Shown here: in pieces, positions 17,965 to 47,483 of the stretch | Layout of the letters: the number at the start of each line of letters is the position of its first letter | Position numbering within the stretch: position 1 is the first letter of the stretch | Position numbers and translations under genes: made by a program | Notes under the pieces: model-generated | Seen by the model: the letters and a program-made list of their open reading frames with translations, nothing else | What the model was told of the DNA's origin: nothing | Databases searched by the model: none | Source: an uncultured Bdellovibrio sp. | GTDB taxonomy: Bacteria; Bdellovibrionota; Bdellovibrionia; Bdellovibrionales; Bdellovibrionaceae | DNA: 64,000 bases | Direction of reading: 5' to 3' | NCBI GenBank assembly: GCA_963932905.1 | Contig: CAWVRN010000003.1 | Coordinates: forward strand, 160,001-224,000

Positions 17965-18090
17965 CTACCAGAGACTGGACGATATTGCCAGAAATGGGCC
18001 GATCCCGAGTCTATGCATTCAATCCAAAATCACCTCTCTTAAAACCAGTGAAAGAACCAAAGTGGAAAACCGCCACTGAAGAACAAATAG
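17965..18090 (+). pseudogene. Multiply deleted relic of the HTH/nucleotidyltransferase segment at 21746-22190
   Basis: Three blocks match ~21746-21768, ~21985-22051 and ~22147-22185 in order. Confidence 0.8.
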
Positions 18091-18097
18091 GTTGGAC

Positions 18098-19327
18098 TCA
18101 ATTTGAGTAAATTAAGTCTGAGTACACATAACCGTCCAATTCAGCAGTCAATATTGGAAAATCCTTGTTCGTAATGGTAACAACGATATGACGATTTACA
18201 TTTGTTTTTGGGTCATGAAAATAGGTTTCAAATTGCACCGATGTTTCAAGCATACCAAAATCCTTCGACGAAAGAACCCCATGCCTATCCATAAAAACTC
18301 TTTGCTCCGCGGGAAGAACCAATTTTAAAATAGGTTCCCACTTAATGTCTCGTTGGCCATTTTTACGTTCTACCAACTGAACTTTTTGCCTATCACCCGA
18401 CTTAGAAACAAAATCCAAATCTAAAACGTACTGACCATCTTGCATTGAATATTCGTAGTAGGCACAAAGAGGATTAATAGTTAGATGAAAGAACTTCTTT
18501 AATCGTATTTCAGCAGGACTCCATGAACCAGGCTTAACTGCATAATTTGGACTATTCGGGTTTACAATACTGAACCAGCACGTTCCACTTCGCTTGGAAC
18601 TCGTATCCTGATTATAAGAAGCTCTCACCTTAAAAAGATCGGCCAAATAGAAATCGCTGCGGACCTTATCAAGAGTATAGTGCTGCCAAAAATTATTAGT
18701 CGTAACAAACCTTACATAAGAATCACGCATTAATGGAATTCGATCAGAATGAGAAAGTCCAAACACATGACCAAGTTCGTGCACAACCGTCAATTGCGTC
18801 GTCCAGCCATCAAATTCGCTCCATGTCTTTGGCCACATTAACTCTGGATCCAAGGCCAAAGGACCGCGTTCAGGAGCTAAATAAATAAAACCTTTACCAC
18901 GAAGGTGTACTCGGTCGTAATCCGTCCTGACGGCCATCGCAATTTTTTTATCAATTCCGGAAAGGTTTTGAAGCTGCTCCAAACTTAAAACACCAAATTG
19001 AAAACGAAGATCAGTTGATGGAGCGCAGTCTTCGTAAGTAAACACCTGTTTACCAACTGGGAAGTCGGCATCTGCATAGTAGGACTCTGCGAACTGCCTA
19101 GTCCAAAATTTAAGAGCTCTTTCAACAATCATTTCTAGTTGTGGTTTTTTAAGGCTAAAGTTAGTTTCGTCAACTTGAATGCAGTAACGGACATTCTTGT
19201 TATTGTTTAAAAACCAAGGGTTATCGGTATCACTCTGGATTTGACCACCGCCTACGACCCAACCGCCCGCGTAGGAATAGCATGATCCAAACAACATACA
19301 AAGGATAAATAAATTTGTAAGTTTCAT
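18098..19327 (-). CDS. Secreted zinc metalloprotease (matrixin/metzincin-like)
   Basis: Signal peptide; HELGHVFGLSH followed by Met-turn 'PLM'. Confidence 0.8.
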   Translation of the reverse strand: MKLTNLFILCMLFGSCYSYAGGWVVGGGQIQSDTDNPWFLNNNKNVRYCIQVDETNFSLKKPQLEMIVERALKFWTRQFAESYYADADFPVGKQVFTYEDCAPSTDLRFQFGVLSLEQLQNLSGIDKKIAMAVRTDYDRVHLRGKGFIYLAPERGPLALDPELMWPKTWSEFDGWTTQLTVVHELGHVFGLSHSDRIPLMRDSYVRFVTTNNFWQHYTLDKVRSDFYLADLFKVRASYNQDTSSKRSGTCWFSIVNPNSPNYAVKPGSWSPAEIRLKKFFHLTINPLCAYYEYSMQDGQYVLDLDFVSKSGDRQKVQLVERKNGQRDIKWEPILKLVLPAEQRVFMDRHGVLSSKDFGMLETSVQFETYFHDPKTNVNRHIVVTITNKDFPILTAELDGYVYSDLIYSN

Positions 19328-19475
19328 TTCTCGAACTCCTCTCTATTTTTCTACCTAAATTAGAACAGCATGGTGTTTCTACTGTTATATGGAGACTTGA
19401 TTAAGTAAATTATTTAGTTAATAATTTTAATTAAATTGGTTAACTTTTTATTAACATCATATCACCCAGGATACT

Positions 19476-20288
19476 ATGAGCGTGTTTGAAATTTCAAGCT
19501 ATAAAGACATCATTAAATATAAAGTCGGATTACTAAAAAAAGTAAACTTTAAATACACTTTTGATTCACTCGCCAAGGCCATTGATGTCCATAAACCTTA
19601 TTTATCGCGTGTCTTGAATCAAAAAGGGGACCTCAGCAGCGATCAAATTTATAAGTGTTCACGCTACCTAAAATTTAGCGATCTAGAGAAACAGTATTTC
19701 GCCTTAGTATACGAAGAAAACATCTCTACTTTGCCCGACAGAAAGTCCATGCTTACAAATGAAATGGATAAGATCCGCAGGAAAGCACTTAAAAGCGATG
19801 TTCTTTATCCTGAAACACCTCAAGATATCGAACGACCAGAAAATTATTTTTTAGATCCTTATCATGCCTTGGTACATATGCATTTACTTATCCCAAAGTA
19901 CAAGAACAATACCGACCTAATTGCTGCAAAACTAAATTTATCAAAGCCTAAAGTGAACGAATACGTAGAAGCTCTACATGACATGCAAATCATTAATAAA
20001 ACTGGCAGCGAAATCAAAATCATGAAGGAGTTTGTTCGTCTGCCCGATAGCTCTCACTTAATGACCTCGTTCAGAAATCTATCAAAATTGAAAGCCCTTG
20101 AAAAAATCACTCAACTCCCGAACGAGGACTATCTCTCTATGCACGTTTTCTTTGTGGCCGATAACTCCGGAAAACAGAAAATCCAGAAATTATTTTTAGA
20201 TTTCCTTAACGAAGCTAAAAAAATAGCAGACAAATCAAAGTGTGAAGACGTTTATCAATTGAATTTTGACTTGTTGAAATGGAGCTAA
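19476..20288 (+). CDS. TIGR02147/DUF4423-like HTH protein
   Basis: 'SVFEISSYK', N-terminal HTH 'YLSRVLN', C-terminal 'VYQLNFDL..W'. Confidence 0.75.
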   Translation: MSVFEISSYKDIIKYKVGLLKKVNFKYTFDSLAKAIDVHKPYLSRVLNQKGDLSSDQIYKCSRYLKFSDLEKQYFALVYEENISTLPDRKSMLTNEMDKIRRKALKSDVLYPETPQDIERPENYFLDPYHALVHMHLLIPKYKNNTDLIAAKLNLSKPKVNEYVEALHDMQIINKTGSEIKIMKEFVRLPDSSHLMTSFRNLSKLKALEKITQLPNEDYLSMHVFFVADNSGKQKIQKLFLDFLNEAKKIADKSKCEDVYQLNFDLLKWS

Positions 20289-20293
20289 GCAGC

Positions 20294-20324
20294 ACCTCTT
20301 CCACGTCAAGGAAGTGGGCTACCA
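20294..20324 (-). repeat. tRNA-Val(GAC) fragment (D-loop through anticodon arm)
   Basis: Reverse complement TGGTAGCCCACTTCC-TTGACGT-GGAAGAGGT. Confidence 0.75.
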
Positions 20325-20407
20325 AATAGCGCCCTTTGCAATTAAAACCATTTTGAGCTTATAAAATCTAAAGTCCTCCGTTGTAGATTCTGTCTTTTTG
20401 TCATAAT

Positions 20408-20632
20408 ATGGCAGAAAGCGATACTAAGGTTTGTATGGAAGTATATATAAAAGAATCTCTAAATTCAGTTTTAGCAAATACGGATCACGACTTAATTGAC
20501 TTTAATCTTTCGCTTTCTTATGAAGAACGACTGTTAAATCATCAGCGCTCACTAGACACAATAAACGAATTACTAAAGGCACGAGTACAAATTTATGGAG
20601 AATCTGAATCTTCTACTCAAACGCCTTCTTGA
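20408..20632 (+). CDS. Small protein, probable antitoxin partner of the downstream nucleotidyltransferase
   Basis: 'DLIDFNLSLSYEERL..H' pattern; overlaps the next gene. Confidence 0.6.
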   Translation: MAESDTKVCMEVYIKESLNSVLANTDHDLIDFNLSLSYEERLLNHQRSLDTINELLKARVQIYGESESSTQTPS

Positions 20633-21518
20633 TGCCAAAATCGACTTTGTACTGATTGGCGGATATGCCGCCGTTGTACATGGAGCATCCCAGGTCACTC
20701 ACGATCTGGATATTTGCGCCGTTATTACAGAAGAACAACTTGTAAAACTAAAAGCGGCACTCAAGGGACTAGATCCTAAACACAGAATGAATCCTTCGGC
20801 TCAATTATCTTTGGACGATTTCCCAGCCGAAGGAAAGACCATAGACAACTACTATCTAAGAACTACAGCAGGAGTTTTGGATATCTTAAAAGAAGTTTCA
20901 ATTGTCGGAGATTTTGAAAAGTTAAAATCTAATGCCAATACAGTGAAAATTTTTGGTCACGAATGCAAAGTGATTTCACTCGATGATTTAATTACAGTAA
21001 AGAAATCAATGACTCGTCCAAAAGACAAAAGTGTTTTGGATGAGCTTTTGACAGTTAAGCAAAAGCTTTCAATAGATAGCGAGAGTTTTCTGAAAACTAT
21101 AAAAGCAAATAGTATCAGCTTTTCAGCAGTTAAAGTTATTGATGAAAATCACTTTGAATCTCGCGTAATTTTCAAAGATTCAAAAAACGAGTCCCTTAAT
21201 TTTGAAGTTGCAATATCCAAAGAAGATTTACGGAATTTTGCAGAAAGACTAAAATCCTTCCCAAAAGACAGTCACGACTATTTAGAAGTCATACTGAAGT
21301 CACTTAAATCTGAAAAAATTGGTTTATCCGTAAAAGTAGTAGATTCAAGCGGAAGATGCGAATTCAAATTAGAGCTAAAAGAAGTTAAAAAAATTGAACT
21401 AGGAATGAAATTCTCAAACACTATTTTAGCAGAACCTTTAAAACTTAATAAGTTAGGCCAATCAATAGAAAGTTGGCTCAATCATCCTTCGGGGAACTTC
21501 TTATTTTCCCTAAAATAA
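20595..21518 (+). CDS. Nucleotidyltransferase (DUF6036/AbiEii-like) fused to an unrelated C-terminal domain
   Basis: 'FVLIGGYAAVVHG...THDLDI', 'SLDDLI..K....RPKD'; further ~150 aa. Confidence 0.75.
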   Translation: MENLNLLLKRLLDAKIDFVLIGGYAAVVHGASQVTHDLDICAVITEEQLVKLKAALKGLDPKHRMNPSAQLSLDDFPAEGKTIDNYYLRTTAGVLDILKEVSIVGDFEKLKSNANTVKIFGHECKVISLDDLITVKKSMTRPKDKSVLDELLTVKQKLSIDSESFLKTIKANSISFSAVKVIDENHFESRVIFKDSKNESLNFEVAISKEDLRNFAERLKSFPKDSHDYLEVILKSLKSEKIGLSVKVVDSSGRCEFKLELKEVKKIELGMKFSNTILAEPLKLNKLGQSIESWLNHPSGNFLFSLK

Positions 21519-21565
21519 AAGGCGCAGCTAAAAGCCAGCAAGAACAAAAACGACGAGACAAGCAA

Positions 21566-21695
21566 ACCAATTCTTCCTAAAATTTCAAAATGCGAGGCGC
21601 CCGAGGACTTCGCGCGGAGGCGTGGCCCGTCCACGCCGCACAAGCGAGGTCCGAAGAGGCAACGAAGTCAGTTTGGAATTTTAGGAAGAATTGGT
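21566..21695. repeat. REP-like nested hairpin element, copy 1
   Basis: 24-bp outer IR (accaattcttcctaaaatttcaaa / tttggaattttaggaagaattggt); inner ggacttcgc/gcgaggtcc and ggcgtgg/ccacgcc stems. Confidence 0.8.
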
Positions 21696-21751
21696 GCGAA
21701 TAACTGGACTCGAACCAGTACCCACTTCCATGTCAAGGAAGTGGGCTACCA
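21692..21751 (-). repeat. 3' 60 nt of a tRNA-Val(GAC), type B (acceptor 3' strand TATTCGC-ACCA), lacking the 5' end
   Basis: Reverse complement TGGTAGCCCACTTCCTTGACATGGAAGTGGGTACTGGTTCGAGTCCAGTTATTCGCACCA. Confidence 0.85.
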
Positions 21752-21810
21752 GAAACTGGACTATATTGACCAATATTTGGTTGATATCGACCAGTTTCTG
21801 GTAATATGAT
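21747..21810 (+). promoter_or_regulatory. Operator inverted repeat overlapping a sigma70-like promoter of the HTH gene
   Basis: taccagaaactgg ... ccagtttctggta (13 bp); TTGATA-18-TATGAT ending 6 nt before the ATG. Confidence 0.6.
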
Positions 21811-21816
21811 AAATCC

Positions 21817-22149
21817 ATGCTAGAAGGAATATTCGGAAACAAAACCGCGGAAAAAGTACTACTTCATATTTTTCACTATGGAGAATCTCATGCATCGGCT
21901 ATTGCTGGTGATTTTAAAATGGCCCACAACCCTATTATTCAACAACTTAATCGTTTTGAGTTAGCGGGAATCTTAATTTCAAAAGAAATGGGTCGATCTC
22001 GAGTTTATTCATTTAATCCCAAATCACCTCTCTTAAAACCAGTGAAAGAACTTATAGAAATTGCGTACGAATCCATATCAATCTCTGAACGCCAAAAAAT
22101 ATTTCAAGTCCGTCGCCGTCCGCGCCGCAAAGGCAAGCCGGTTCAATGA
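21817..22149 (+). CDS. Winged-helix HTH protein, probable antitoxin/regulator
   Basis: 'LEGIFGNKTAEKVLL', 'QLNRFE.AGIL.S...GRSRVY.FNP'; ATGA overlap with the next gene. Confidence 0.75.
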   Translation: MLEGIFGNKTAEKVLLHIFHYGESHASAIAGDFKMAHNPIIQQLNRFELAGILISKEMGRSRVYSFNPKSPLLKPVKELIEIAYESISISERQKIFQVRRRPRRKGKPVQ

Positions 22150-22685
22150 AGGAACCTAATTGGAAAACCGCCACTGAAGAAAAAGTATGGCAATACGTGG
22201 GCTGGCATTTAGCCAAAAACGGAATTGAGACAATACTTGTCGGCGGCGCTGTCGCTGCAATTTATTCCGAAGGAATTTACAAATCAGGAGATTTAGATTT
22301 TGTTCTAAAAACATATATCGAAAACAAACTCACTGAAGCAATGGAGTCGATAGGTTTTCAAAGGCCTACTGGTCGACACTACGTTCACCCAGAATGCAGT
22401 ATTTTTATAGAGTTCATGCATGGACCGGTGGGTATAGGTGATGACGTAAAAATTAAGCCTGATGCAAAAACGATCGAAGGACAAAAACTATATATTTATT
22501 CTCCTACAGATTGCATACGCGATCGCCTAGCCTCTTATATTCATTTCAAAGCACGTGAATGTTTAGACCAGGCCGCACTCGTTGCTAAAAAATTTCCTTT
22601 TAATCAAAAGAAAGTAAAAGACTGGTGCGCTTCCGAAGGAGCTCCGCACGCTTTCGATGACTTAATGAAAAAAATTAAAAATTAA
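22146..22685 (+). CDS. Nucleotidyltransferase-family protein (DUF6036-like), probable toxin
   Basis: 'LVGGAVAAIYS.G.YKSGDLDFV', 'SPTDCIRDRLA'. Confidence 0.7.
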   Translation: MKEPNWKTATEEKVWQYVGWHLAKNGIETILVGGAVAAIYSEGIYKSGDLDFVLKTYIENKLTEAMESIGFQRPTGRHYVHPECSIFIEFMHGPVGIGDDVKIKPDAKTIEGQKLYIYSPTDCIRDRLASYIHFKARECLDQAALVAKKFPFNQKKVKDWCASEGAPHAFDDLMKKIKN

Positions 22686-22752
22686 GTCCCGCACAATCTA
22701 CAACTATTGGTAAATCAGGTAAGGGATCAAGACCTAACTTCTACAACTAAAC

Positions 22753-23358
22753 TCAGTCGATATGCTGACAACCTGCGCTTGTTATTCCAGAGCCAAGCAA
22801 AAGATTGGGTTTTAAAACGCCAGTTTTTAAAGCGTTCTTAATATCCTCACGAAACTGAGCCCAAAACTTGTCATTAATTGTCCATGGAAAATCATGTCTG
22901 ACTACAAAGTCGTGCGCCCCAAACAAAGCCATTAATACATTTCTGGCCTCAGTCGTTAGTTGTCCTCTTTCATCATAGGGGATTAACTTCCCGTCGGTTA
23001 CCGCAAATTTGATTGCGGCACCTCCTGAATAATCTTTTGTTCTCTTTAGAAGAAAACTATCGAAATTCAGCAGCTGAAATACCTTGCCTCGCTCAGGATC
23101 CTGCATTTCTTTGTCTAAACGCGTATCCATCTGATAGAGTTCTCCGAATTCATCCTTTTGCAAGCCCGCCGAGAAAATGTAATCCGCAATTGAAAACCCA
23201 TTCTGATTGGGGTTTTCAAGCGGTATTTCAATAATTTTTTTTACGTCTAGTTTTCTATCAGCAAAATAAATTCCTACTTCGCAATTCATTGTTCCTGAAT
23301 AAGCAGAACATGCAAAAAAGGAAGTAAGTAGGATTAAAATCTTATTATGCGCTTTCAT
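22753..23358 (-). CDS. Secreted hypothetical protein
   Basis: Signal peptide from MKAHN; AGGAG RBS. Confidence 0.6.
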   Translation of the reverse strand: MKAHNKILILLTSFFACSAYSGTMNCEVGIYFADRKLDVKKIIEIPLENPNQNGFSIADYIFSAGLQKDEFGELYQMDTRLDKEMQDPERGKVFQLLNFDSFLLKRTKDYSGGAAIKFAVTDGKLIPYDERGQLTTEARNVLMALFGAHDFVVRHDFPWTINDKFWAQFREDIKNALKTGVLKPNLLLGSGITSAGCQHID

Positions 23359-23366
23359 GGAATCTC

Positions 23367-23768
23367 CTAGTTGCATTCAATTCTGCTTTTACTGCCGTCA
23401 TTTTCTAGCACATCCATGTAAAATAATTTTCCCCAACTATGAATTGATAATTTTCTATACTTAATGGCAGCACCCGTCTTTGGGTTGTACTCATAAATTT
23501 CAATGCCTTCCAAATCAGCGCCCTCCGAATGAGATTTAAATTCCAAATTTACAGACTCTTTTAGAGTCGCTCCCTCTAACTCGTAGCGATTTTCAAAGTG
23601 AATAATACCTCTGCCAAATCCAACCGCATATTTATACTGCAGCAAAGAGTAAGGTCCGCACTGGGCTACCTTTTTGGATTCAAATCCAGCGTCCGAAGTA
23701 GCCATGGCCTCTGAAAGAAGTGAAATAAGTAATGTTAAAACAAGTGTATTTAAAATTTTCATAGTCAT
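23367..23768 (-). CDS. Secreted hypothetical protein
   Basis: Signal peptide; GAGG RBS; in an operon. Confidence 0.6.
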   Translation of the reverse strand: MTMKILNTLVLTLLISLLSEAMATSDAGFESKKVAQCGPYSLLQYKYAVGFGRGIIHFENRYELEGATLKESVNLEFKSHSEGADLEGIEIYEYNPKTGAAIKYRKLSIHSWGKLFYMDVLENDGSKSRIECN

Positions 23769-23774
23769 ATCCTC

Positions 23775-24209
23775 CTATTTGATCGTCACGCAAAAATCTT
23801 TTTTTGTTCCATCGCCAACATAGGCACTTAACAACGCGTTGGCTCCTTCACTGCAATAGCTGGTGGTATAGGATAAATTCGATCCAGTGCTGTTGCGCCC
23901 AATTACGATTAGATTTTGATCATTATATTTTTGAGTAGTAGGGTTTAAATTTAAACTATAGAAGAAATATTTTTTTGGTTTTGTTACGTAAGCGAAAATT
24001 TTTCCATCTTCCAAAGTCGCCTCGCCAATATCTTCACCTTCGATTAACATTTCGCTAATACCTGTCTTATTTAACGAAACTTGAATTTTCTTTGTCAGAA
24101 CAGCATTAAGTTCACGATCATAGCCCGTGTTGATCTGGCCCGATTTCACGACGGGTGCGGCACTGGCCATAGCACTTATGACGGTTAATAAAACGGTAAA
24201 GCTTTTCAT
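23775..24209 (-). CDS. Secreted hypothetical protein
   Basis: Signal peptide; AGGAG RBS. Confidence 0.65.
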   Translation of the reverse strand: MKSFTVLLTVISAMASAAPVVKSGQINTGYDRELNAVLTKKIQVSLNKTGISEMLIEGEDIGEATLEDGKIFAYVTKPKKYFFYSLNLNPTTQKYNDQNLIVIGRNSTGSNLSYTTSYCSEGANALLSAYVGDGTKKDFCVTIK

Positions 24210-24345
24210 AAAAACTCCTTTATTGGTTGATGACGCGAAGATAATTCATTGCGTTAATCGCTTCTAGATTAAATTGGTACAAAAGTTTACATTTTCAGTA
24301 CTTTTAGTTCATTATTTTCATTAAATAACCGATTATATTGATATA

Positions 24346-25149
24346 ATGAGTATTTTTAAATATCAGAATTTTCGCAAATACTTGAAGTCTGTCCAGGATG
24401 AACTACCTAAGAAGGGCCGCGGTACGATTACCCTATGGGCTTCTATTATCCAATCTACACCCACTCTAGTGAGCCAGATTTTAATAGGTAACAAGTCAAT
24501 GAGTTTAGAAATGGTCGATCGCCTATCGACTCATTTGGAGCTGTCTGAGAAAGAAAAAGACTACTTTATCTTGCTTGTAGAATTTGATCGCGCGGGTACA
24601 AAATCTTTAAAAGATTACTTCCTTAAGAAGATAGTGATTATGCAGGATGAATCACGCTATTTGAAAAATCAAATTAAAGGTATTACTGAACTACCGGCCG
24701 AGGTAAAAGCCATCTACTACTCACAGTGGGTGTATGCCGGTATTAGAAACCTCGTCGCCTGTGCTAAAATTGCGAATGCTGAAACGATCGCTGAGGAACT
24801 GAATCTTCCTAGGGAAACTATCTCTAATGTGATCGATTTTCTTGTGAAACATCAACTTATAGTTCCTGCAAAGAAAGGATGGGCTCCTGGTCCGCAAAGT
24901 ACGTTTGTTCCCGCCGACTCCCCGTTAGTTTACAAGCACCATCAGAATTGGAGGCTTAAAGGTATTCAACAAATGGATCTACAATCCAAAGAAGATTTGT
25001 TTTACACTTCACCAATGTCACTTTCGGCAGACTTAGCGAAAGAACTGCGCAGCCGTATCGTAAAGGTTATTCAAGACTTTCAAAAAGACATCGGCCCGTC
25101 AGAATCAGAAGTCGTTCGTTGCCTAAATATTGACTGGTTTGAATACTAG
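24346..25149 (+). CDS. TIGR02147/DUF4423-like HTH protein
   Basis: 'SIFKYQNFR.YL', 'YYSQWVY..IR', 'HHQNWR', 'VRCLNIDWFEY'. Confidence 0.8.
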   Translation: MSIFKYQNFRKYLKSVQDELPKKGRGTITLWASIIQSTPTLVSQILIGNKSMSLEMVDRLSTHLELSEKEKDYFILLVEFDRAGTKSLKDYFLKKIVIMQDESRYLKNQIKGITELPAEVKAIYYSQWVYAGIRNLVACAKIANAETIAEELNLPRETISNVIDFLVKHQLIVPAKKGWAPGPQSTFVPADSPLVYKHHQNWRLKGIQQMDLQSKEDLFYTSPMSLSADLAKELRSRIVKVIQDFQKDIGPSESEVVRCLNIDWFEY

Positions 25150-25181
25150 GTTTTGGCCAACCATTTGCTATTTTATAGGGT

Positions 25182-26528: not shown

Positions 26529-26558
26529 AAAAAGAGAAAAGAACGGAAGAATCAGAAC

Positions 26559-26619
26559 TGTTGATCTGTAGTGAACTCGAACCACTGACCTCGTCGATGT
26601 CAAGGACGCGCGCTACCAA
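26559..26619 (-). repeat. Degenerate 3' 61 nt copy of the type A tRNA-Val(GAC) at 47241
   Basis: 57/61 identical to 47241-47301 by manual alignment. Confidence 0.85.
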
Positions 26620-26879
26620 GATATAACTCATCCCAATTTGGACAGCAAAGCCTACAAACTTAACAGAGGCCGTTCCGAAACCTAGGGTCATAGTGACCGT
26701 AAGCTAGGATGAAAATTCGACAAGAATTGGAGACAATCGTCTCTTTAGCCAAATTCAGTACAGTTCAAATCATCTAAGAATTACAGCATCATAGGGGTTT
26801 TTCTCGCATTTTTGTACTGGGTTTAGTCAAAAAAAAGGGCGAATTAGTGTTGGCATAGCTTGCAGAATTTTTTATACAG

Positions 26880-27830: not shown

Positions 27831-28139
27831 GCCAGATGGGTTTTGATGTTTTCCCTTCCCAATGAAATTTCGGACTTGTGAACGCTGGATCAAATGCACA
27901 AGAACTAGTTAACAAAATGCTCAAAGAACATTCTGTCGCCCTTCTAGGGTGATCTCATTACGGACTACCAAACCACATCAGAATTTCTGTAGGTTTACCA
28001 GAAACAAATCGGACAGTTTTATCACAACTCAAAATTCAATTCCAAAAGATAAACACTCAATCCTGTTAGAAATTTTACGCAAAACAACAAAGAGCGCAGC
28101 CAAAGGCCAGCCAGAAAAAAGAACGACGATCCAAGCACA

Positions 28140-37353: not shown

Positions 37354-37365
37354 ACCCGTCTTGAA

Positions 37366-37426: not shown

Positions 37427-37432
37427 AAGATT

Positions 37433-39670: not shown

Positions 39671-39682
39671 CTTGGAGCGAGA

Positions 39683-40171
39683 ATGAATTTCCATAAAAGG
39701 CAAATATTAGTTTTCAGCTTGGCAATGATGACGTTCATTGCTTGGGCTCATGAAGGAAAGCATCATCCAAAGTCCAACACTCAAGAGAAAACCAGTTTTG
39801 TTCAAATTAACGAATTGTATTTAACGGACGTAAAACCCATTTTTGAAAAAAAGTGTTTCGACTGCCACGGCTCATCAAGCTCATCAGCTTGGTATCGAAA
39901 TGTTCCTGGCGCGAAACAGCTTATCGATAGCGACATTAAAGAATCAAAAGAGCACTTAGATATGTCTTCTGATTTTCCTTTTAAAAGTCATGCGACTCCG
40001 CTTGAGGATTTAGACGCGATCCAAAGCTCAATTGATAAGAACGAAATGCCGCCTTTTCGTTATCGCATTATGCATTCAGACAGTACCTTAACCACTGTTG
40101 AAAAAGAAAAAGTCAGCAAGTGGGTGCAATTTGGAAAAGAAATTTTAAAAGTAAAACAAACCAACCAGTAA
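39683..40171 (+). CDS. Haem-binding domain (cytochrome c-like) protein
   Basis: CFDCH, 'WY...PG', 'EMPP..Y..MH'. Confidence 0.8.
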   Translation: MNFHKRQILVFSLAMMTFIAWAHEGKHHPKSNTQEKTSFVQINELYLTDVKPIFEKKCFDCHGSSSSSAWYRNVPGAKQLIDSDIKESKEHLDMSSDFPFKSHATPLEDLDAIQSSIDKNEMPPFRYRIMHSDSTLTTVEKEKVSKWVQFGKEILKVKQTNQ

Positions 40172-40184
40172 AGGAATTACCAAA

Positions 40185-40808
40185 ATGAAAATATTTTTAA
40201 TGTCACTCTCGCTTTTGATCAGTCAGATCGCATTCGCGAGTGAGCCGCCACCGAACTATCCGCTGGTTAAAGGAATAATCAGAAAATTAGATATTAATTC
40301 TGGGCGCGCTTCCATTAAGCACGAAGAGATTCCAAATCTGAACATGCCTGGTATGACAATGTCGTTTCTTGCCCAAGATCCCGAGATTCTTGCGGGTCTC
40401 GCTGTCGGCGATCAAGTTAACTTTGTCGCTGATGAAGTCGAAGGAGAACTTGTCGTTCTTTGGATTGAAAAAACAGCCCCGCCAACAGCAGAAACTTCAA
40501 ACGTTACTTGCACTGGAACGGCCAACACTTATCCAAAAACGAATGTCGAAATTGAAATTCGGCATGGCAAGTTTAGCACAATCCGCTATGAATACGCAGA
40601 GGGGCCTTATAAAGGAACCTCTCACATTAATTCAATCGGTCGAATGCAAATGCATAAACGTAACGGCTTTTTTATCGCTCGCTCCGGCACTGGAGAACTT
40701 GATTCAAAACTTATTTTTAAAGCTCAGGATGGGAAAATTTCTGATGCTTGTTTCACAAACTTTAGCGCAAGTATGAACAATGCGATTGTTCAGTGTGCTT
40801 TTGAATAA
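40185..40808 (+). CDS. CusF-like copper-binding protein with C-terminal extension
   Basis: 'IKHEEIPNLNMPGMTMSF', 'L.VGDQV.F'. Confidence 0.8.
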   Translation: MKIFLMSLSLLISQIAFASEPPPNYPLVKGIIRKLDINSGRASIKHEEIPNLNMPGMTMSFLAQDPEILAGLAVGDQVNFVADEVEGELVVLWIEKTAPPTAETSNVTCTGTANTYPKTNVEIEIRHGKFSTIRYEYAEGPYKGTSHINSIGRMQMHKRNGFFIARSGTGELDSKLIFKAQDGKISDACFTNFSASMNNAIVQCAFE

Positions 40809-40935
40809 TTGAAGACATGTCTGGATTAATTTTTGCATATTTTCGCTCTAGCAAGCAAGAAAACGTTCGTTCTGGGATTTTTTTCCTCTTGCGATGTTTC
40901 TGGTGTGGCGATTTTTAAGACTAGGGAGGTTATTT

Positions 40936-41412
40936 ATGCACGGACACACGAACCACGAAAATCATGGCGGAGGAATGCACTACAAGCACCTGGCAATCAT
41001 GACATTTCTTTCATTTTTAGCCATGTACATTCTTATGTATGCAATGGTTGATCGCTTGGAAAATGTTTATCACAGCTTCAACCAAGTCTATATGGCGGCA
41101 CTCATGACTTCGCCGATGGTTTTGATCGAACTTATTATCATGAAAATGATGTACCCAGATAAAAAGAAAAATATGGTAATTCTTGCAGTTAGTACGGTTG
41201 CGCTTGTCGTGTTTTTTTCGTTCATTCGATTTCAGACAGGGATTTCTGACAAACAATTCTTACGGTCTATGATACCCCATCATGCAGGGGCCGTACTTAT
41301 GTGTAATGAGGCGAAGATTTCAGACGAAGAAATTAAGAGTCTTTGCAACAGCATTATTGAAGGTCAGCAAAAAGAAATTGATAAAATGAAGGCGATCTTA
41401 AATAGACTTTAA
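40936..41412 (+). CDS. DUF305 (CopM-like) membrane protein
   Basis: 'FLRSMIPHHAGAVLMC', 'IIEGQQKEI..M'. Confidence 0.8.
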   Translation: MHGHTNHENHGGGMHYKHLAIMTFLSFLAMYILMYAMVDRLENVYHSFNQVYMAALMTSPMVLIELIIMKMMYPDKKKNMVILAVSTVALVVFFSFIRFQTGISDKQFLRSMIPHHAGAVLMCNEAKISDEEIKSLCNSIIEGQQKEIDKMKAILNRL

Positions 41413-41438
41413 ATAATCGCCTTTATAAAATCTGGGAA

Positions 41439-41774
41439 TTATTTGGCTGTAATTTCCCCTTTAAGCATATTCATTCCACAAGCAAAACCAAGTTTACCTT
41501 TTTTAACTTTACCTAAATCGATCGAAACTGTTTCGTTAAGTGGCAGTTTCTTTTCGATCTTTTTATCTTTAATTTTGATGTCGGTCGCGCAAGTATTATC
41601 CGTTGTTCGCGTCACTTTTAGAGTCACGGGAACATTGGCTGGGACTTCCAAATTGCTAGGCTCAAACCCTCCTTCGGTAATTTTGATTTCAATAACTTGG
41701 CTTTCATTAGCAAAAGCTGCGATTGGAGAAGTCAGAGACAGAGCAAAACAAAGTGACAAAATTATTTTTTTCAT
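41439..41774 (-). CDS. Cupredoxin-domain protein
   Basis: 'GFEPS.LEV', 'TCAT', 'FACGMNMLKG'. Confidence 0.8.
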   Translation of the reverse strand: MKKIILSLCFALSLTSPIAAFANESQVIEIKITEGGFEPSNLEVPANVPVTLKVTRTTDNTCATDIKIKDKKIEKKLPLNETVSIDLGKVKKGKLGFACGMNMLKGEITAK

Positions 41775-41787
41775 TTCAATTTCCTTT

Positions 41788-42159
41788 TTAAATGTTAGGC
41801 AAAATGTAAGCGAATCCAAACCCAATAAGAAACACGAAAAGACTTACAGTATAAAAAATCTTACTCGTTTTTCGTCCTCTGATGCAAGCATCTCGAAGCT
41901 TCGGATCAATCGGACAAGGCGCATTTCGATTCATCCAAAGTAAAACACCATTTCCAGCCAGCATGACTCCTGAAAAGCCAAAAAGTAAGGCTTTATTTTC
42001 TGATGCCCAAATGAGGCCCGGAACATTGGAAGCTAAGCCTGCCATGACAGCGCCTAACCCTAGGCTCACCAACAAAGCTGGAAGAGCACAACAAATCAGC
42101 GTGCTCATCGAGCCGAACAGTGTGAGATAGTTAACAACTCCATCACGAATCTTGGTCAT
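41788..42159 (-). CDS. MerT-like heavy-metal transport membrane protein
   Basis: 'LICCALPALLV.LG.GA', 'PCP.DP....AC'. Confidence 0.7.
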   Translation of the reverse strand: MTKIRDGVVNYLTLFGSMSTLICCALPALLVSLGLGAVMAGLASNVPGLIWASENKALLFGFSGVMLAGNGVLLWMNRNAPCPIDPKLRDACIRGRKTSKIFYTVSLFVFLIGFGFAYILPNI

Positions 42160-42443
42160 TTTTTCTCCTCAAAACTAGCTTCGTAGCCAGCATCTTTAAG
42201 AATTTCAGCGACTTTTTCATTTGGAAGACGCTTTCCATCTTTGAAATTCAGTTTCACGAATTTATTAGCAAGACTTACTTCAACTTTTGCGACTTCTGGT
42301 TGAGCCATAAATTTTTTCTCGATACCTTGTGCGCAAAAAGCGCAGACCATACCTTTAACATTCACTTTAAGTTCTTCGCCTGCGAAGGCCAAACTTGTAG
42401 ATAGAATCATCACTGATAATAGAATTAATTTTTTCATATTCAT
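42156..42443 (-). CDS. Periplasmic HMA-domain metal-binding protein (MerP-like)
   Basis: Signal peptide; GMVCAFC. Confidence 0.85.
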   Translation of the reverse strand: MNMKKLILLSVMILSTSLAFAGEELKVNVKGMVCAFCAQGIEKKFMAQPEVAKVEVSLANKFVKLNFKDGKRLPNEKVAEILKDAGYEASFEEKK

Positions 42444-42448
42444 ACTCC

Positions 42449-43084
42449 TTAAAAATGCACCATGTAGTTAAACGCCCATCCACCATCGAATCTCGCTCCC
42501 ACTTCCCAGAGCGTATTTTTCATATAAAATCTTAAAAACTGGGTCATTTCGATATTGGATTCATTGAGATGTTTCTCGCCTTGAAGAATCAGCCACACAT
42601 TTAAATCGGCATAGTCCGCTAAGAAAGGAGCTGTTCCAACGCGAAGTTTAGAGTGGTTATAATCCCGCTCTGGAAGTTGAGCATTTTGTTCATTACTGCG
42701 ATTTAAGTAAAGATGATCGAAGTAAATATAGTACTTTCGACTTTCCCAATCAGCGACGAACTCAGCTAGATTTACGCCATAATTTTTAGAAGCAAATTTT
42801 TCGTAGCCAGCACCGCCGCTTAAATAAATATTCCCTTGAGAGTCATCATTATTCCATCGCTTTAAGAGAAAGTTCACACGCGGAATGTAAAACTCAGATT
42901 TAGAATCCCGAAGATAAGTTCCAGCAACTGCAAAATGTGGGGTTAACGAGTAAGTTAGTAAGATCTCGTTCATCTCTGGGTTATTGTAGGACATCAAGCC
43001 CACGGCATCCTTATAAGATACTGGATGAGCGTACACAAAATTCGATGAAAGTAAGATCGAAGCTATTAGCAGACGTATTTTCAT
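42449..43084 (-). CDS. Probable outer-membrane beta-barrel protein
   Basis: Signal peptide then HPV; amphipathic strands; C-terminal F. Confidence 0.6.
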   Translation of the reverse strand: MKIRLLIASILLSSNFVYAHPVSYKDAVGLMSYNNPEMNEILLTYSLTPHFAVAGTYLRDSKSEFYIPRVNFLLKRWNNDDSQGNIYLSGGAGYEKFASKNYGVNLAEFVADWESRKYYIYFDHLYLNRSNEQNAQLPERDYNHSKLRVGTAPFLADYADLNVWLILQGEKHLNESNIEMTQFLRFYMKNTLWEVGARFDGGWAFNYMVHF

Positions 43085-43093
43085 AGGGGTTAC

Positions 43094-43133
43094 TCCTACA
43101 TAGGAATACGAATACTTTGATAGAGTTGTGACA
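43094..43133 (-). promoter_or_regulatory. Putative ECF promoter TGTCACAA-N15-CGTATTC for the leftward operon
   Basis: Minus strand tgtcacaa ctctatcaaagtatt cgtattcctatgtagga. Confidence 0.7.
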
Positions 43134-43194
43134 GCTATACGCAGAACACTATTAAACGCTTGAAATCACTTAAGTTTAGCGTTTCAATTTGAGA

Positions 43195-43233
43195 TGTCAC
43201 AAACCGCTCGTGAGCGTCGTATTCTATGTAGGA
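43195..43233 (+). promoter_or_regulatory. Putative ECF autoregulatory promoter
   Basis: tgtcacaa accgctcgtgagcgt cgtattctatgtagga. Confidence 0.7.
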
Positions 43234-43240
43234 AGGGTTA

Positions 43241-43777
43241 ATGTCGAAAGACTTGAAAACAAAGTCAGACGAAGAACTTATGCAAAGCTATCAAGATGGT
43301 GGTGTCGCGGCTTTTGATGTCCTTTTTGAAAGACATTCCGGACGTGTTTTTGGATTTCTTTCTAAGAGACTTACAAAAAAGAAGGAAGCCGAGGATTTAC
43401 TACAGGAAGCGTTCTTTAAACTGCATCGTTCAAAGCATTTGTATAACTCGACGCTGCCTTTTTCACCTTGGTTATTTTCAATTACGCGCTCTGTTTTGCT
43501 GGATTTTGCTAAAAAGAAAAATTTAGAAGATCCAGTTGATATAAGTGATTTCGATAAAATTGCGATAGCTGAAAATCCGGAGATACGACACGACTTAGAA
43601 GGTCTCGTTTCGGCTCTGCCTCAAACCCAAAGTGAAGCGTTAAGTCTTCGCATTTATGAAGATAAAACGTTTGAGGAAATTGCTTCTCGTTTATCGACTT
43701 CTCCTGAAAACGCCCGTCAGCTTGTGAGTAGGGGAATTAAAAAACTCAAACAAGCGCTTGTAAGAAAGGAAGATTAG
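43241..43777 (+). CDS. ECF sigma factor
   Basis: 'AEDLLQEAF.KL', 'FSPWLFSI.R', region 4 'FEEIA..L'. Confidence 0.9.
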   Translation: MSKDLKTKSDEELMQSYQDGGVAAFDVLFERHSGRVFGFLSKRLTKKKEAEDLLQEAFFKLHRSKHLYNSTLPFSPWLFSITRSVLLDFAKKKNLEDPVDISDFDKIAIAENPEIRHDLEGLVSALPQTQSEALSLRIYEDKTFEEIASRLSTSPENARQLVSRGIKKLKQALVRKED

Positions 43778-43778
43778 T

Positions 43779-44309
43779 ATGGATTTAGGTCAAAAAAATG
43801 AATGGCTCAAAGACTTCACAGAGTTTTCAAATGTTACTTCTGATCAGGTTCCAGCTTCAGCTTATGCGAGGCTGAAGAAACGCCTGTTCCCCAGTCCTTG
43901 GATTGTTTTTGGCAAAATTCTAGGAGTTCATGCCGTTGTTGGATCTTTGTCTTTGGCCGTGTGTAACCAGTTTGGCCTTAATCCCTTTAATACTCAGCAA
44001 TCATTGACGGATTGGTTTATGAAAATCGCGGGTCATAACTTTTGTATGCTTTTGTGCGGAATGTTCTTTATGATGACCACATATATTCTATCGAATTTGA
44101 TTTTAACTTTTGAGGAAATTGAATCTGTTAAGCGACATGAATGGTTACAAACAGGAATTATTGGCCTTGTTTCATTAGCCGCATTCCATTTCTTTGGAGC
44201 TGAATTGATCGGAACATTTATGGCTTTGTGGATAGCGGGAGCTTTAATTGGCGGATACGTTTCAATTGAGGGAAGCTATCGATTCAGAAGAAACTTTTTT
44301 ACTGTCTGA
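43779..44309 (+). CDS. Membrane protein, probable anti-sigma factor
   Basis: Immediately follows the sigma gene; TM helices with 'CNQFG' and 'HNFCMLLCG'. Confidence 0.65.
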   Translation: MDLGQKNEWLKDFTEFSNVTSDQVPASAYARLKKRLFPSPWIVFGKILGVHAVVGSLSLAVCNQFGLNPFNTQQSLTDWFMKIAGHNFCMLLCGMFFMMTTYILSNLILTFEEIESVKRHEWLQTGIIGLVSLAAFHFFGAELIGTFMALWIAGALIGGYVSIEGSYRFRRNFFTV

Positions 44310-44396
44310 TGAAATTATCCTCCTTCTATGATCAAAAGCGGGTTGGCTCAAGGTAAGATTAGTAAATCACGAGCAAAGAGTTACTACAAGAAAACA

Positions 44397-44422
44397 GCAC
44401 GAAGTCAAACCTCCCTTCGTGC
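44397..44422. terminator. Hairpin between convergent operons
   Basis: gcacgaag...cttcgtgc followed by a T-run. Confidence 0.45.
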
Positions 44423-44491
44423 GCTTTTATAAAGTCTTGAAATGAACTTCAGCCTTTAACAAAAGGCTATTAAGTGTGAGATTTGAGCTAT

Positions 44492-44920
44492 TCAAATTAA
44501 AGGAAACAGTGATTTTTTTAAAGTAAGGAGATGTTTTTCAATCAAGTCACGACTAGTTCTGAATCTTTGCATTTGTTCTTCGCTTGAACTAGACTGCCCT
44601 ACGGGGTCATCTACAGGCCAATGAAGCTTTTGGGCCGTTTTCGATGGCAAAACCGGGCACACTTCTTCAGCGCAAAGTGTGATCACGAAATCTAGATCAC
44701 TCATAAATTCAATTGAAAGGTCATCAATCGATTTTGAATAGTTCTCACTGATATCAATACCAATTTCTTTCAGAGTCGAAATTGCGAATGGCTGAACTTT
44801 CCCACTCGGATTCGAGCCTGCACTTTGAATTTCAAATGTATCGCCAAGTATGGACTTAGCTAGCCCCTCCGCAATTTGGCTTCGCGCTGAATTCGCTACA
44901 CAAAGAAATAATATTTTCAT
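44492..44920 (-). CDS. arsC: Arsenate reductase (LMW-PTP type)
   Basis: LFLCVANSARSQIAEG, ITLCAEEVCP, HWPVDDP. Confidence 0.92.
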   Translation of the reverse strand: MKILFLCVANSARSQIAEGLAKSILGDTFEIQSAGSNPSGKVQPFAISTLKEIGIDISENYSKSIDDLSIEFMSDLDFVITLCAEEVCPVLPSKTAQKLHWPVDDPVGQSSSSEEQMQRFRTSRDLIEKHLLTLKKSLFPLI

Positions 44921-44935
44921 ATCTAGATTCCTATT

Positions 44936-45634
44936 TTAAATTTTCTCAAGGTTAATCTTTAAATTGTGTTCTTTTCGTTCGCTGTAGCGATCAACCAAAA
45001 AATCGCGAATATCTCTAGTTAAAAATGTAAACTTCATTAACTCTTCCAGAACGTCAACAACCCGGTCTCGATATGAAGATGCCTTCATTTTCCCATCTTC
45101 ATCAAATTCGTTGTATGCCTGCGCCACAGAAGACTGGTTCGGGATAGTTAGCATTCTCATCCAACGTCCAAGAATGCGTAAAGTATTAACTGCATTAAAT
45201 GATTGAGATCCGCCCGAAACTTGCATGATTGCAAGAGTTCGCCCCTGAGTTGGACGTACTGCATTTAAACTCAGCGGAATCCAATCAATTTGATTCTTAA
45301 TTACACCAGATACATTTCCATGCATTTCCGGAGTAACCCATACCTGCCCTTCAGACCATATGCTTAGCTCGCGAAGTTCAGCAACCTTTGGATCACCCTC
45401 CGATTCCTGATCAAATACTGGAAGATCCTTTGGATCGAAAAATTTTATCTCAGCTCCCATCTTTTCTAAGATTCGTCCACACTCCTGTGCCAATAATCTT
45501 GAATACGATTTCACTCTAAGTGATCCGTGCAAGATAAGAATTTTAGGTGCGTGTGTCGATGAATATAATTTGGAATTCTCAGGTTTAAAATGAAAGTCGA
45601 CTTTATCAAGGTATGCAGGAGATTCTTTTTTCAT
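44936..45634 (-). CDS. arsH: ArsH NADPH-dependent FMN reductase
   Basis: [30 protein letters not shown]. Confidence 0.95.
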
Positions 45635-46704
45635 TTTGCCGCCGATGTAGAAATTTTGATTGAGTCAAAAAAATAGTTTCGCTTAATCCATAGTGACACA
45701 TGAACCAAACCTACAAGCACCGGGACTTCTACCAATGGACCAATAACCACAGCAAAAGTCGCCCCATGACCAATTCCGAATGAAGCGATAGAAATGGCAA
45801 TAGCTAGTTCAAAATTGTTGGAGGCTGCGGTAAATGACAGGGTTGCAGACTGCGAGTAGTCGGCCCCAGCTTTTTTGCTCATAATAAATGAAATTAAAAA
45901 CATAGTTAGGAAATAGATAGTTAGAGGAATTGCGATTCTAACCACATCAAAAGGCAGTTGAAGAATTTGCTCTGCTTTTAAAGAAAACATGAATATGATC
46001 GTCAGAAGCAGAGCAATCAAGGTAATTGGACTTACACGAGGTAGAAATTCTGATTCGTACCAGTCGTTACCTTTCTTGGATTTTAAAATTGCACGGGTAA
46101 CTATGCCCGCAGTGAATGGTATGCCTAAATATAAAAGGACGGACTTAGCCACATCTAACATGGAAATCTGAATTTCGGTTTCTTGCATATTAAGAAAATG
46201 AGGAAGCCACTTCAAAAAGAAGAAGGCATAAAAAGGAAATAGAAGAATTTGGAATATTGAATTGAAAGCCACAAGTCCAGCGCAATATTCTGGGTCCCCG
46301 TCTGATAAGTCATTCCACACAAGGACCATGGCAATACAGCGAGCAAGACCAATCAAGATGAGGCCAACCATGTAATCAGGATATCCTCGAAGGAACAAGA
46401 TCGCTAAAGCAAACATAAGCAAAGGGCCAACGATCCAGTTTTGAACAAGAGAAAGTAATAGGACCTTCTTATTTTTAAAGACTAAGCCAATTTGTTCGTA
46501 CTTAACTTTTGCAAGTGGCGGAAACATCATCAGAATCAAACCGATTGCCAAAGGTATTGATGTTGTCCCGTAATTAAATTGATTAGCAACCCGAACCAAC
46601 GACGGCGCGAAGTTTCCAAGTACCAAGCCAAAGCCCATCGCTAGAAAAATCCATAAAGTAAGATACCGATCAAAAAAAGAAAGTCTCTTTTCCTTCATCA
46701 GCAA
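45631..46704 (-). CDS. acr3: ACR3-family arsenite efflux permease
   Basis: [37 protein letters not shown]. Confidence 0.95.
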
Positions 46705-47102
46705 TTTCCTTCAAAGCAGTCGATAATTCGACAGCAAGCCACTGCTTCCTTACTTTTTGCACAGGCAGCTTCTATCTGCTGTAGGGACTTTTTCATTCGT
46801 TGCAGATCTTTAATTTTCTCCTGAATTTCCGCAATCTTTGACTCTGCACGAACCTGAACATCACCACAGGTAGCTCTCATATCAGTATTCATAAACAACA
46901 GTTCCTGAACCTCTTTTAACGTGAATCCTAAGTTCTGAGCGCGTTTGATAAAAAGAATTCGCTGAATAGTTTCCTTGGGATAATGTCGGAATCCAATTCG
47001 TGTCGATGGCTTTTTAATAAGGCCCTTACGTTCGTAAAATCGAACAGTTTCTACCCCAACACTGGCTTCACTCGCTAATTTTCCAATAGTAAAATCACCC
47101 AT
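46698..47102 (-). CDS. MerR-family metal-responsive regulator
   Basis: FTIGKLA...[21 protein letters not shown] and two further C-terminal Cys; start at MGDF. Confidence 0.9.
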
Positions 47103-47107
47103 AACCA

Positions 47108-47139
47108 ACTTTAAACTCCGTACCATAGTACGGAGTCAA
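47108..47139 (-). promoter_or_regulatory. MerR-type operator/promoter
   Basis: TTGACT-20-TAAAGT containing the palindrome actccgtac-cata-gtacggagt (47115-47136). Confidence 0.85.
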
Positions 47140-47240
47140 TGCAGAAACGGAAACTTTTTGTAGGCATGCGATAATTTTGTGCATTTAAAGTAGAGCATCG
47201 AGAAATTCCACTAAAAATGCCAAAAAAATCGGAGGAGAAA

Positions 47241-47316
47241 TGGTGGTCTGTAGTGGACTCGAACCACTGACCTCGTCCATGTCAAGGACGCGCGCTACCA
47301 ACTACGCTAACAGACC
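47241..47316 (-). tRNA. tRNA-Val(GAC), intact, CCA encoded (type A)
   Basis: GGTCTGT TA GCGT AGTTGGTA GCGC G CGTCC TTGACAT GGACG AGGTC AGTGG TTCGAGT CCACT ACAGACC ACCA folds as a cloverleaf. Confidence 0.95.
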
Positions 47317-47457
47317 AATTTAGACACACTAAACTTCGCAAAATCGATTTTGCTTAGCTTGCTACCAAGCTACCAAACCCCAGACAGCTGTCGGAACCTT
47401 GATACTAAATTCTTTCGAATTTCTAGCGACATAGAAGAGTTTGTTTTCCTGATGCAG

Positions 47458-47483
47458 TTCCATGTGAAGGAAGCGCGCTACCA
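47458..47483 (-). repeat. Short type B tRNA-Val fragment (anticodon reads CAC)
   Basis: ttccatgtgaaggaagcgcgctacca, 25/26 identical to the 33999 copy. Confidence 0.75.

Follow-up and report, generated by a model that had tools for sequence, protein, structure and literature searches.

Integrative elements probably stacked in tandem at a tRNA-Val(GAC) hotspot of an uncultured Bdellovibrio

The window, the whole stretch of DNA analysed here, comprises 64,000 nucleotides of an uncultured Bdellovibrio species (contig C3, positions 160001–224000, of a genome in 58 contigs) and contains an intact tRNA-Val(GAC) gene and a series of tRNA-Val fragments with gene-bearing segments between them. This region probably belongs to a larger, ~76-kb array of integrative elements arranged in tandem at a tRNA-Val(GAC) hotspot and represents its older portion; the array would have formed by repeated integration through one divergent tyrosine integrase family and by subsequent decay. 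One member of the array would still be whole, at ~41 kb; it carries an integrase, an FtsK-like coupling ATPase and genes for type IV secretion and extends from a second tRNA-Val outside the window to a short tRNA core at 47458. The original prediction, drawn from the window alone, had taken the fragments for the borders of cassettes in an integron-like platform, captured at the tRNA D-arm by a recombinase acting in trans. Positions without a prefix refer to the window and those prefixed C3 to the contig.

ARAGORN calls the intact tRNA-Val(GAC) on the minus strand at 47241–47316. A repeat search finds a 31-nt tRNA segment in seven co-oriented copies, at 20299, 21726, 26593, 28307, 34033, 47275 and 47458, with spacings of 1427, 4867, 1714, 5726, 13242 and 183 nt; five of the copies reach 76 nt. 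The two methods recover the intact gene and the six co-oriented fragments of the original prediction with their coordinates and lengths. The junction word GCGCGCTACCAA occurs five times where 0.15 occurrences are expected, a count that none of 100 shuffles gets to, and TTGGTAGC occurs 11 times (1.28 expected). On alignment, the similarity of every copy sets in exactly at the D-loop TGGTAGC (tRNA sense), and over 20 fragments in five species of the genus share this boundary. The common D-loop break noticed at the outset is confirmed by these alignments, and the fragments are attachment (att) scars left where elements integrated site-specifically at a tRNA, as had been proposed.

A second tRNA-Val(GAC) lies on the same strand at C3:248450–248525, 41 kb past the window's tRNA, and a whole-genome tRNA scan with BLAST places every tRNA-Val(GAC)-like piece of the genome within C3:180294–248525. 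A profile built from the fragments of the window reveals a further, degenerate copy at 12407–12463 (nhmmer, E 1.7e-5), confirmed by alignment to the tRNAs, which brings the array to eight scars within the window. All are on the minus strand, and the fragments fall into two classes: a long form covering tRNA positions 16–76 (33999, 28274, 26559, 21692 and 12407) and a short form covering positions 16–42 or 16–47 (47458 and 20294). The long scars at 33999–34061 (positions 16–76) and 28274–28334 (positions 16–75) are 100% identical to the last 61 nt of the outside tRNA-Val(GAC) and not to those of the window's tRNA; the scar at 26559–26621 is the sole fragment of the window-tRNA type, with 96% identity over positions 16–70. 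Farther out lie a long scar at 21692–21753 (positions 17–76, 90% identical to the outside tRNA), a short scar at 20294–20327 (positions 16–47, anticodon-loop A37>G) and a truncated junction at 17965–17977. This last retains only GGTAG of the core, at 17970, together with flanking sequence in common with 21752–22190. The strongly degenerate scar at 12407–12463 (positions ~18–76) would be the oldest and marks the distal end of the array. Identity to the tRNA therefore drops with distance, from 100, 100, 96 and 90% to two truncated copies and one very degenerate one, a decay expected if elements inserted one after another at the tRNA end and the older scars then eroded. ARAGORN also offers 21692–21770 as a tRNA-Val gene with the anticodon at position 37; we rejected this call as an att scar with chance 5′ pairing. 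Changes at positions 24, 26, 44 and 47 of the same fragment lengthen its anticodon-loop inverted repeat to 9 bp.

The original prediction had suggested looking for a recombinase beside a tRNA-Val elsewhere in the genome, and one is found at the second gene: an open reading frame (ORF) for a divergent tyrosine integrase at C3:246767–248206 converges on the 3′ end of this tRNA across a gap of 244 nt. The integrase gene lies 39.5 kb beyond the window's tRNA and 41–76 kb from the cassettes; a 118-amino-acid ORF immediately upstream of it is a possible candidate for a directionality factor. Farther upstream of the integrase gene are genes for TrbC/VirB2, TraC/VirB4, TrbL/VirB6 and TrbI/VirB10-like proteins, an FtsK/SpoIIIE-type ATPase and a DNA methylase, and a weak MobC-family match (24 bits, against a cut-off of 200). 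The association of integrase and secretion genes with the second tRNA indicates that the stretch from there to 47458 is a ~41-kb conjugative-type element. It shows several of the features by which an integrative and conjugative element (ICE) is recognised: an integrase with flanking att repeats (the second tRNA-Val and the core at 47458–47486), type IV secretion genes and a coupling ATPase. The core at 47458–47486 (minus strand, tRNA positions 16–42, G34>C) would be its distal junction, attR.

The integrase is far from the standard models of its superfamily. It scores 19.7 bits against PF00589 (E 8e-4), below the curated threshold of 27.1 bits, and a genome-wide PF00589 search does not list it; no PF00589 or PF00239 match lies within C3:160–255 kb, the contig's PF00589 matches falling outside the array. 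Against seven canonical integrases encoded in this genome, hhalign reports probabilities of 96.8–98.6%, the family motifs pairing with boxes I and II. The AlphaFold 2 model (mean predicted local distance difference test score 76.8) gives 24 Foldseek matches at E ≤ 0.001; those listed comprise XerH, XerA, lambda Int, Tn1549 Int, Cre and further recombinases of the integrase or Xer type. By sequence profile the similarity to Protein Data Bank entries is weak (E 0.36 to a XerC-like protein). The motifs TGLRRGN, TK, H-x-W-R/K-HSYAT, CCLH and T-x-x-Y are kept among 14 aligned members, with catalytic residues assigned by eye from the hhalign pairing, and activity of the array's integrase is plausible from its sequence. 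Homologues occur in 28 of the 384 genomes of the order and, in the species collection, at 27 loci. Almost all of these loci carry titles of Bdellovibrio, Bdellovibrionaceae, Bdellovibrionales, Bdellovibrionia, Pseudobdellovibrionaceae or Bacteriovoracaceae, three being named just as proteobacteria. The family is confined to Bdellovibrionales in the collections examined.

The genome also contains about a dozen genes for large (~570–640 amino acids) serine recombinases (C1:4353, C5:968, C58:381, and on C45, C22, C43, C12, C15 and C11). Several are at contig ends and one lies ~1.3 kb from a tRNA-Val(TAC) gene on C1. They may represent a second, unrelated family of mobile elements.

Comparison of the integrase loci reveals a recurrent arrangement at the target. 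A convergent tRNA gene (Val-GAC, Val-TAC, Gly-GCC or Ala-GGC) stands beside the integrase in 13 of 30 and 13 of 27 loci, many of the others stopping at contig edges. A 5′ partial tRNA precedes the complete one in 18 of the 26 rows, which correspond to 12 of 17 distinct loci, extending from position 1 to 40–48 (in one case 6–63) and lying 107–164 nt away. In the better-assembled genomes, far-end fragments 17–21 kb off start at positions 11–17 and end at 76, apart from one cut at position 49 by a contig end. Within the genus, G171, G172 and G173 run from a conserved chromosomal flank through a 5′ partial, a 137-nt spacer and a complete tRNA to the integrase, and the same flank directly meets a complete tRNA in the window's genome and in G179. 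These arrangements show that the element typically cuts the host tRNA without mending it and imports a whole replacement tRNA. In the window's genome, a later collapse between two 42-nt direct repeats appears to have joined the flank to the complete gene.

The spacers of nine of the 17 distinct loci contain GGTA[AG] boxes phased at 8 bp, whatever the target tRNA. Among the 34 tRNAs of the window's genome such boxes accompany one, that at 47241 (the motif occurs 55 times in 9.1 Mb, both strands counted); together with its spacer and the core at 47458, this tRNA therefore constitutes an element-type module. The spacer occupies 47317–47457 (minus strand) and includes two adjacent TTGGTAGC boxes at 47361–47376. 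The same core–spacer–tRNA module is present in G171 and G172, there ahead of a copper island. We read the window's intact tRNA-Val as an element-borne copy, the replacement tRNA brought by the element of the adjoining segment A, and the GGTAG boxes as probable arm-type sites.

The site of strand exchange could be mapped in tRNA-Gly elements of two genomes from other genera, G001 and G301, where both junctions lie on one contig. In each, as read by eye, the 5′ strand of the attL anticodon stem pairs perfectly with the 3′ strand of attR, which rebuilds the host tRNA, and the 5′ strand of attR pairs perfectly with the 3′ strand of attL, which rebuilds attP. Positions 27–31 of attL pair with 39–43 of attR, and vice versa, and the 29/41 pair is mismatched inside attL as well as inside attR. 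This swapping of anticodon-stem strands confines the exchange to the interval from position 29 to 41. Once rebuilt, attP forms a perfect 14+7+14 palindrome with the anticodon loop in the middle and tRNA positions 18–31 as its left arm; the attP sequences of G001 and G301 differ in a single pair, 28/42, which covaries. In our genus, the right arm of the G171 attL is complementary to the left arm at 11 of 14 positions (this figure, like the 14/14 of the perfect arms, was read by eye) and ends in CTACC, mirroring GGTAG. A hybrid tRNA on G171:C74 switches type between positions 28 and 42.

The D-loop break is then best explained as the outer edge of an integrase half-site, and not as the crossover point that had been predicted in the D-arm. 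Similarity to the tRNA begins at position 18 because the half-site ends there, and in the short form it stops at ~42–48 because the right arm mirrors the left arm and is no copy of the tRNA. By analogy with G001 and G301, crossover in this array likewise probably occurs in the anticodon loop.

These observations lead to the following scheme. The integrase most likely binds two inverted half-sites of ~14 bp that flank the 7-nt anticodon loop and exchanges strands within the loop; the left half-site would be tRNA positions 18–31, hence scars that start at the D-loop GGTAGC. An arriving element would leave the host tRNA cut after position ~42 and add a GGTAG-box spacer and a complete replacement tRNA, which would offer a fresh target for the next arrival and so favour stacking. 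The segments between the scars, called A–G from the intact tRNA outward, would be older arrivals from which the integrase was lost, or small riders devoid of one. Segments A–D are bounded by cores with identical, intact anticodon loops, which might in principle let a resident integrase cut them out in the manner of cis-mobilizable elements (CIMEs). The scars, the second tRNA, the integrase with its fold, the architecture common to the family and the crossover region of two relatives are shown directly; a matching crossover in this array, the function of the GGTAG boxes, the order of events and any present-day mobility of the segments are inferred.

Segments A–G measure 13.2, 5.7, 1.65, 4.8, 1.4, 2.3 and 5.5 kb, and whole elements 17–41 kb. 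The segments hold 1–14 genes in both orientations, with their own regulators. As expected of CIMEs, they are bounded by cores and lack integration and transfer genes: Pfam scans of A–G find no type IV secretion families and no recombinase except an IS481-like transposase in segment B. The claim that the window lacks an integrase holds for tyrosine and serine recombinases; the transposase of segment B is of the DDE type. Three proteins were considered as recombinase candidates. The 448-amino-acid protein of segment D, which occupies an integrase-like position, has no integrase similarity and no Pfam, NCBIfam or PADLOC family, and its protein-atlas matches are solely unnamed Bdellovibrionota clusters; it was rejected, as were the 458- and 535-amino-acid proteins of segment B, for which evidence was likewise wanting. 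PADLOC matches the dGTPase gene of the large element and otherwise gives a weak match for an ArsR-like protein, so the defence candidates suggested for the small segments were not borne out.

Relatives of the segments are scattered through the genus, in which six of ten species have arrays of tRNA fragments and four have single fragments. The right part of segment D is conserved at 72–88% nucleotide identity in four other species, often adjoining a fragment, and the pair formed by the 448-amino-acid protein and a DUF4423 protein is present in four other species. The peptidase/DUF4423 pair of segment F recurs near the G175 array (36 and 58% amino acid identity). A 1.36-kb two-gene segment is common to G175 and G179 at 82% identity, with differing neighbours on both sides; one of its edges lies 6 nt from the 3′ end of a fragment, and the other edge has no fragment in G179. 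The copper block at 34346–40162 is 78% identical to, and inverted in, G171 and G172 (L036:9970–12928 and L039:303–6080), where it lies directly against an element-borne tRNA; the inversion indicates that the island was rearranged between species. Pieces of the segments are also found inside one another: 17169–17248 in segment G derives from segment E, and 17990–18089 from segment D. No synteny was found in the genus for window positions 1–18500, and G176 has a single tRNA-Val by the conserved lipB/dnaE side with nothing syntenic downstream.

Several observations weigh against repeated integration followed by decay, or against parts of the scheme. A six-frame search of C3:165000–250000 with the integrase family profile finds the intact gene and, as its next match, one at E 0.29, which leaves no integrase trace in the segments; given this and their lengths of 1.4–13 kb next to elements of 17–41 kb, decay alone would need seven clean losses. 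Long scars without 5′ partial tRNAs demand that 5′ partial and spacer collapsed after each insertion, and such a collapse is suggested by the comparison of our locus with G171–G173. The crossover position is carried over from tRNA-Gly elements of other genera, and in a G175 hybrid the type switch lies in the T-arm, which indicates that homologous exchange between copies occurs too. The array's integrase and four others have lysine in place of the second catalytic arginine; this is probably tolerated, because it is shared by the enzymes of G001 and G301, the genomes where att sites are cleanest. Pfam scans of the conjugative element's ORFs find no relaxase family, and the altered anticodon-loop base of the core at 47458 means that the large element may no longer excise precisely.

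The missing integrase remnants would be explained if the small segments were non-autonomous units with their own attP, caught and released by the integrase of a resident or visiting element without any crossover in the D-arm, the locus then serving as a store of cassettes. The recurrence of small inter-fragment segments (1.4–5.9 kb) in G175, G179 and G171, the differing contexts of the 1.36-kb segment and the identical anticodon loops of the A–D cores suit such a trans-mobilised platform, and mobilisation of CIMEs by a co-resident ICE is documented in passages of PMC5704250. To this extent the proposal of a recombinase acting in trans is plausible from sequence, the segments lacking a recombinase of their own and a candidate integrase standing at the second tRNA-Val. 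However, the short, low-depth contigs of four runs (X1–X4) contain no well-supported core-to-core joint or circle junction: the single candidate, 26619>34033, has 23 letters only on one side, and the joints 27907>33711 and 30797>31969, the former in contigs of two runs, are insertion-sequence polymorphisms. A scan of metagenomes for strain variants with the core pattern returned 36 stretches, all window-identical, known relatives or single tRNA-like matches without homology to the array. The G179 copy of the shared segment, with no fragment on its other side, the scar decay with distance, which suits passive accumulation, and the segment relics inside one another, which point to decay and rearrangement, also argue against mobilisation in trans, and we consider it unlikely, though some segments may be true non-autonomous riders. 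A strictly integron-like system, in which a dedicated platform recombinase acts at the D-arm on folded or tRNA-derived att sites, would account for the sharp common boundary at GGTAGC and could find a parallel in the longer hairpin-like inverted repeat that evolved in fragment 21692. It is very improbable, as the attL/attR swapping in G001 and G301 sets the exchange between positions 29 and 41, no IntI-type gene, attI or attC-type hairpin was found (PF00589 matches fall outside the array), and the cassettes are multi-gene, bidirectional and self-regulated, with decaying scars between them.

An assembly artefact or chimeric bin, with repeats misjoined in a metagenome-assembled genome, must be considered where 58 contigs and identical 61-nt repeats are involved and where assemblies of relatives often break at the fragments. 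Two metagenome contigs (loci L078/L079 and L087/L106) are nevertheless 100% identical to the window and keep the fragments 33999, 28274 and 26559 in the same order, although they have two fewer 99-nt repeat units and may derive from the same data as the assembly. Short contigs of other runs span the fragments at 20294 and 21692, and modules of these types are found in five further species, so that misassembly is scarcely credible as the origin of the array. Repeated integration by one tyrosine integrase family, followed by decay, remains the reading we prefer. A wider interpretation would recognise a class of elements specific to Bdellovibrionales, in which a divergent integrase acts on a ~35-bp palindromic attP that mimics tRNA positions 18–38, the host tRNA is discarded for a replacement attB, arrays propagate themselves and, in this genus, have come to store small integrase-less cassettes that the resident integrase shuffles in trans; as a whole we regard this as possible but doubtful.

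Arrays of islands linked to tRNAs are a main route by which bacteria gain adaptive genes. Here the cargo consists of copper and arsenic resistance, secreted proteases and toxin–antitoxin-like pairs, and the arrival of a whole new tRNA carrying a new target gives a simple mechanical reason for stacking. Because standard models miss this integrase family, neither the live element nor the array would be picked up by island finders that depend on an integrase match. If the small segments were moved in trans, the predatory bacteria of this order would have a means of cassette exchange parallel, and unrelated, to integrons.

Tandem accretion at a tRNA is a known process, of which this locus is a clear example. 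Passages of PMC5704250 describe accretion of ICEs and CIMEs in which remnants keep their att sites and a newcomer inserts alongside and may excise a remnant. Tandems of ICEs, integrative and mobilizable elements and CIMEs of the streptococcal ICESt1/ICESt3 type are alike in having one att site, remnants that lack integration and transfer genes and an adjacent newcomer. Those insert at the end of a protein gene or tRNA, whereas the present array targets a tRNA anticodon loop, lines up seven remnants and has an integrase unrelated in sequence; mobilisation, documented for CIMEs, would here be conjectural. The Prochlorococcus tycheposon islands, as described in parts of bioRxiv 10.1101/2020.12.28.424599, share elements stacked at a tRNA, partial tRNAs as separators, adaptive cargo, newcomers that push older elements inward, degenerate remnants and extra partial tRNAs. 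They differ in phylum and integrase family; here a complete replacement tRNA follows a spacer, one member is conjugative and the remnants have no integrase fragments. Integrases of Islander site class ‘A’ likewise cross over in the anticodon loop between symmetric flanks, and their islands have at the far end a displaced 3′ piece of the tRNA (passages of PMC4383910 and bioRxiv 10.1101/2020.11.02.365908). In a typical island, attP supplies a 3′ piece that restores the gene, whereas here a 5′ partial pseudogene is followed 107–164 nt on by a new tRNA, and the enzyme falls below the Pfam cut-off. With integrons the array has in common gene-bearing units, recombination sites between them and one tyrosine recombinase. 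It differs in having no IntI, attI, Pc or attC, in sites that are double-stranded, tRNA-derived direct-repeat cores and in multi-gene units with their own regulators. No such element appears in the titles and abstract openings of the literature on Bdellovibrio ICEs at tRNAs, which was not searched for the replacement-tRNA architecture; within these limits, what is new is an integrase family below the Pfam threshold, replacement of the tRNA over repair, the GGTAG boxes and how long the series of integrase-less segments is.

The part of the conjugative element inside the window is its distal 16.5 kb (47487–64000), which by Pfam encodes a dGTPase-like protein, DsbA/DsbB, PCuAC, SCO1, a P-type ATPase and a resistance–nodulation–division (RND) efflux system. 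The dGTPase-like gene, at 49882–51294 towards the distal end, matches a phage-defence model (PADLOC E 3e-58). Segment A (34062–47240) is a copper and arsenic resistance island without an integrase. Its copper genes encode a Cu P-type ATPase, a CueR-like MerR regulator, a multicopper oxidase, CusF, a cupredoxin and an HMA protein; alongside are an extracytoplasmic function (ECF) sigma pair, ArsC, ArsH, Acr3 and a second MerR regulator. The multicopper oxidase gene contains, at 38478–38625, repeats phased at 15 nt and rich in His and Met codons, probably encoding a metal-binding loop.

Segment B (28335–33998) encodes proteins of 458, 244 and 535 amino acids that belong to no family known to Pfam. 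It contains the IS481-like insertion sequence at 30798–31968, with the DDE transposase at 30889–31935, and a miniature element of ~280 nt derived from an insertion sequence at 33711–33990. The latter has inverted ends and a relic of a transposase N-terminus and lies directly beside the fragment at 33999. Segment C (26622–28273) contains an ORF at 26880–27830, in which six or more tandem 99-nt units (27007–27801) encode a 316-amino-acid protein of 33-residue repeats; in the otherwise identical assembly at locus L079 there are about two units fewer. Segment D (21754–26558) encodes an ArsR-like protein of 110 residues, a protein of 179 residues, the DUF4423 protein and the 448-amino-acid protein, and has three small minus-strand ORFs.

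Segment E (20328–21691) holds a 74-amino-acid ORF and a 307-amino-acid nucleotidyltransferase/HEPN-like protein, which resemble a toxin–antitoxin pair. In segment F (17978–20293), a matrixin-like peptidase gene (18098–19327, minus strand) is followed by a gene for a DUF4423 helix–turn–helix protein (19476–20288, plus strand); the relic of the left end of segment D at 17990–18089 lies here, beside the truncated junction. Segment G (12464–17964) encodes a 1510-amino-acid protein (12596–17128) and has a 116-amino-acid ORF, and its 80-nt relic at 17169–17248, found by repeat search, comes from the nucleotidyltransferase gene of segment E.

Two repeated elements complete the inventory. A palindromic GC-hairpin element of ~130–190 nt lies directly 3′ of tRNA-Val copies, at 28086–28273 in segment C, at 21517–21691 in segment E (~175 nt, 94% identical to the sequence 3′ of the intact tRNA in G179) and at L034:5641–5813 and L045:10593–10747. 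It also occurs 3′ of tRNA-Arg(TCG) in G176, and shorter copies are scattered among relatives. Beyond the distal end of the array, a ~260-nt repeat at 5485–5743 has at least 30 copies in the genome at 95–98% identity, many of them at contig ends, and is likely a miniature transposable element.

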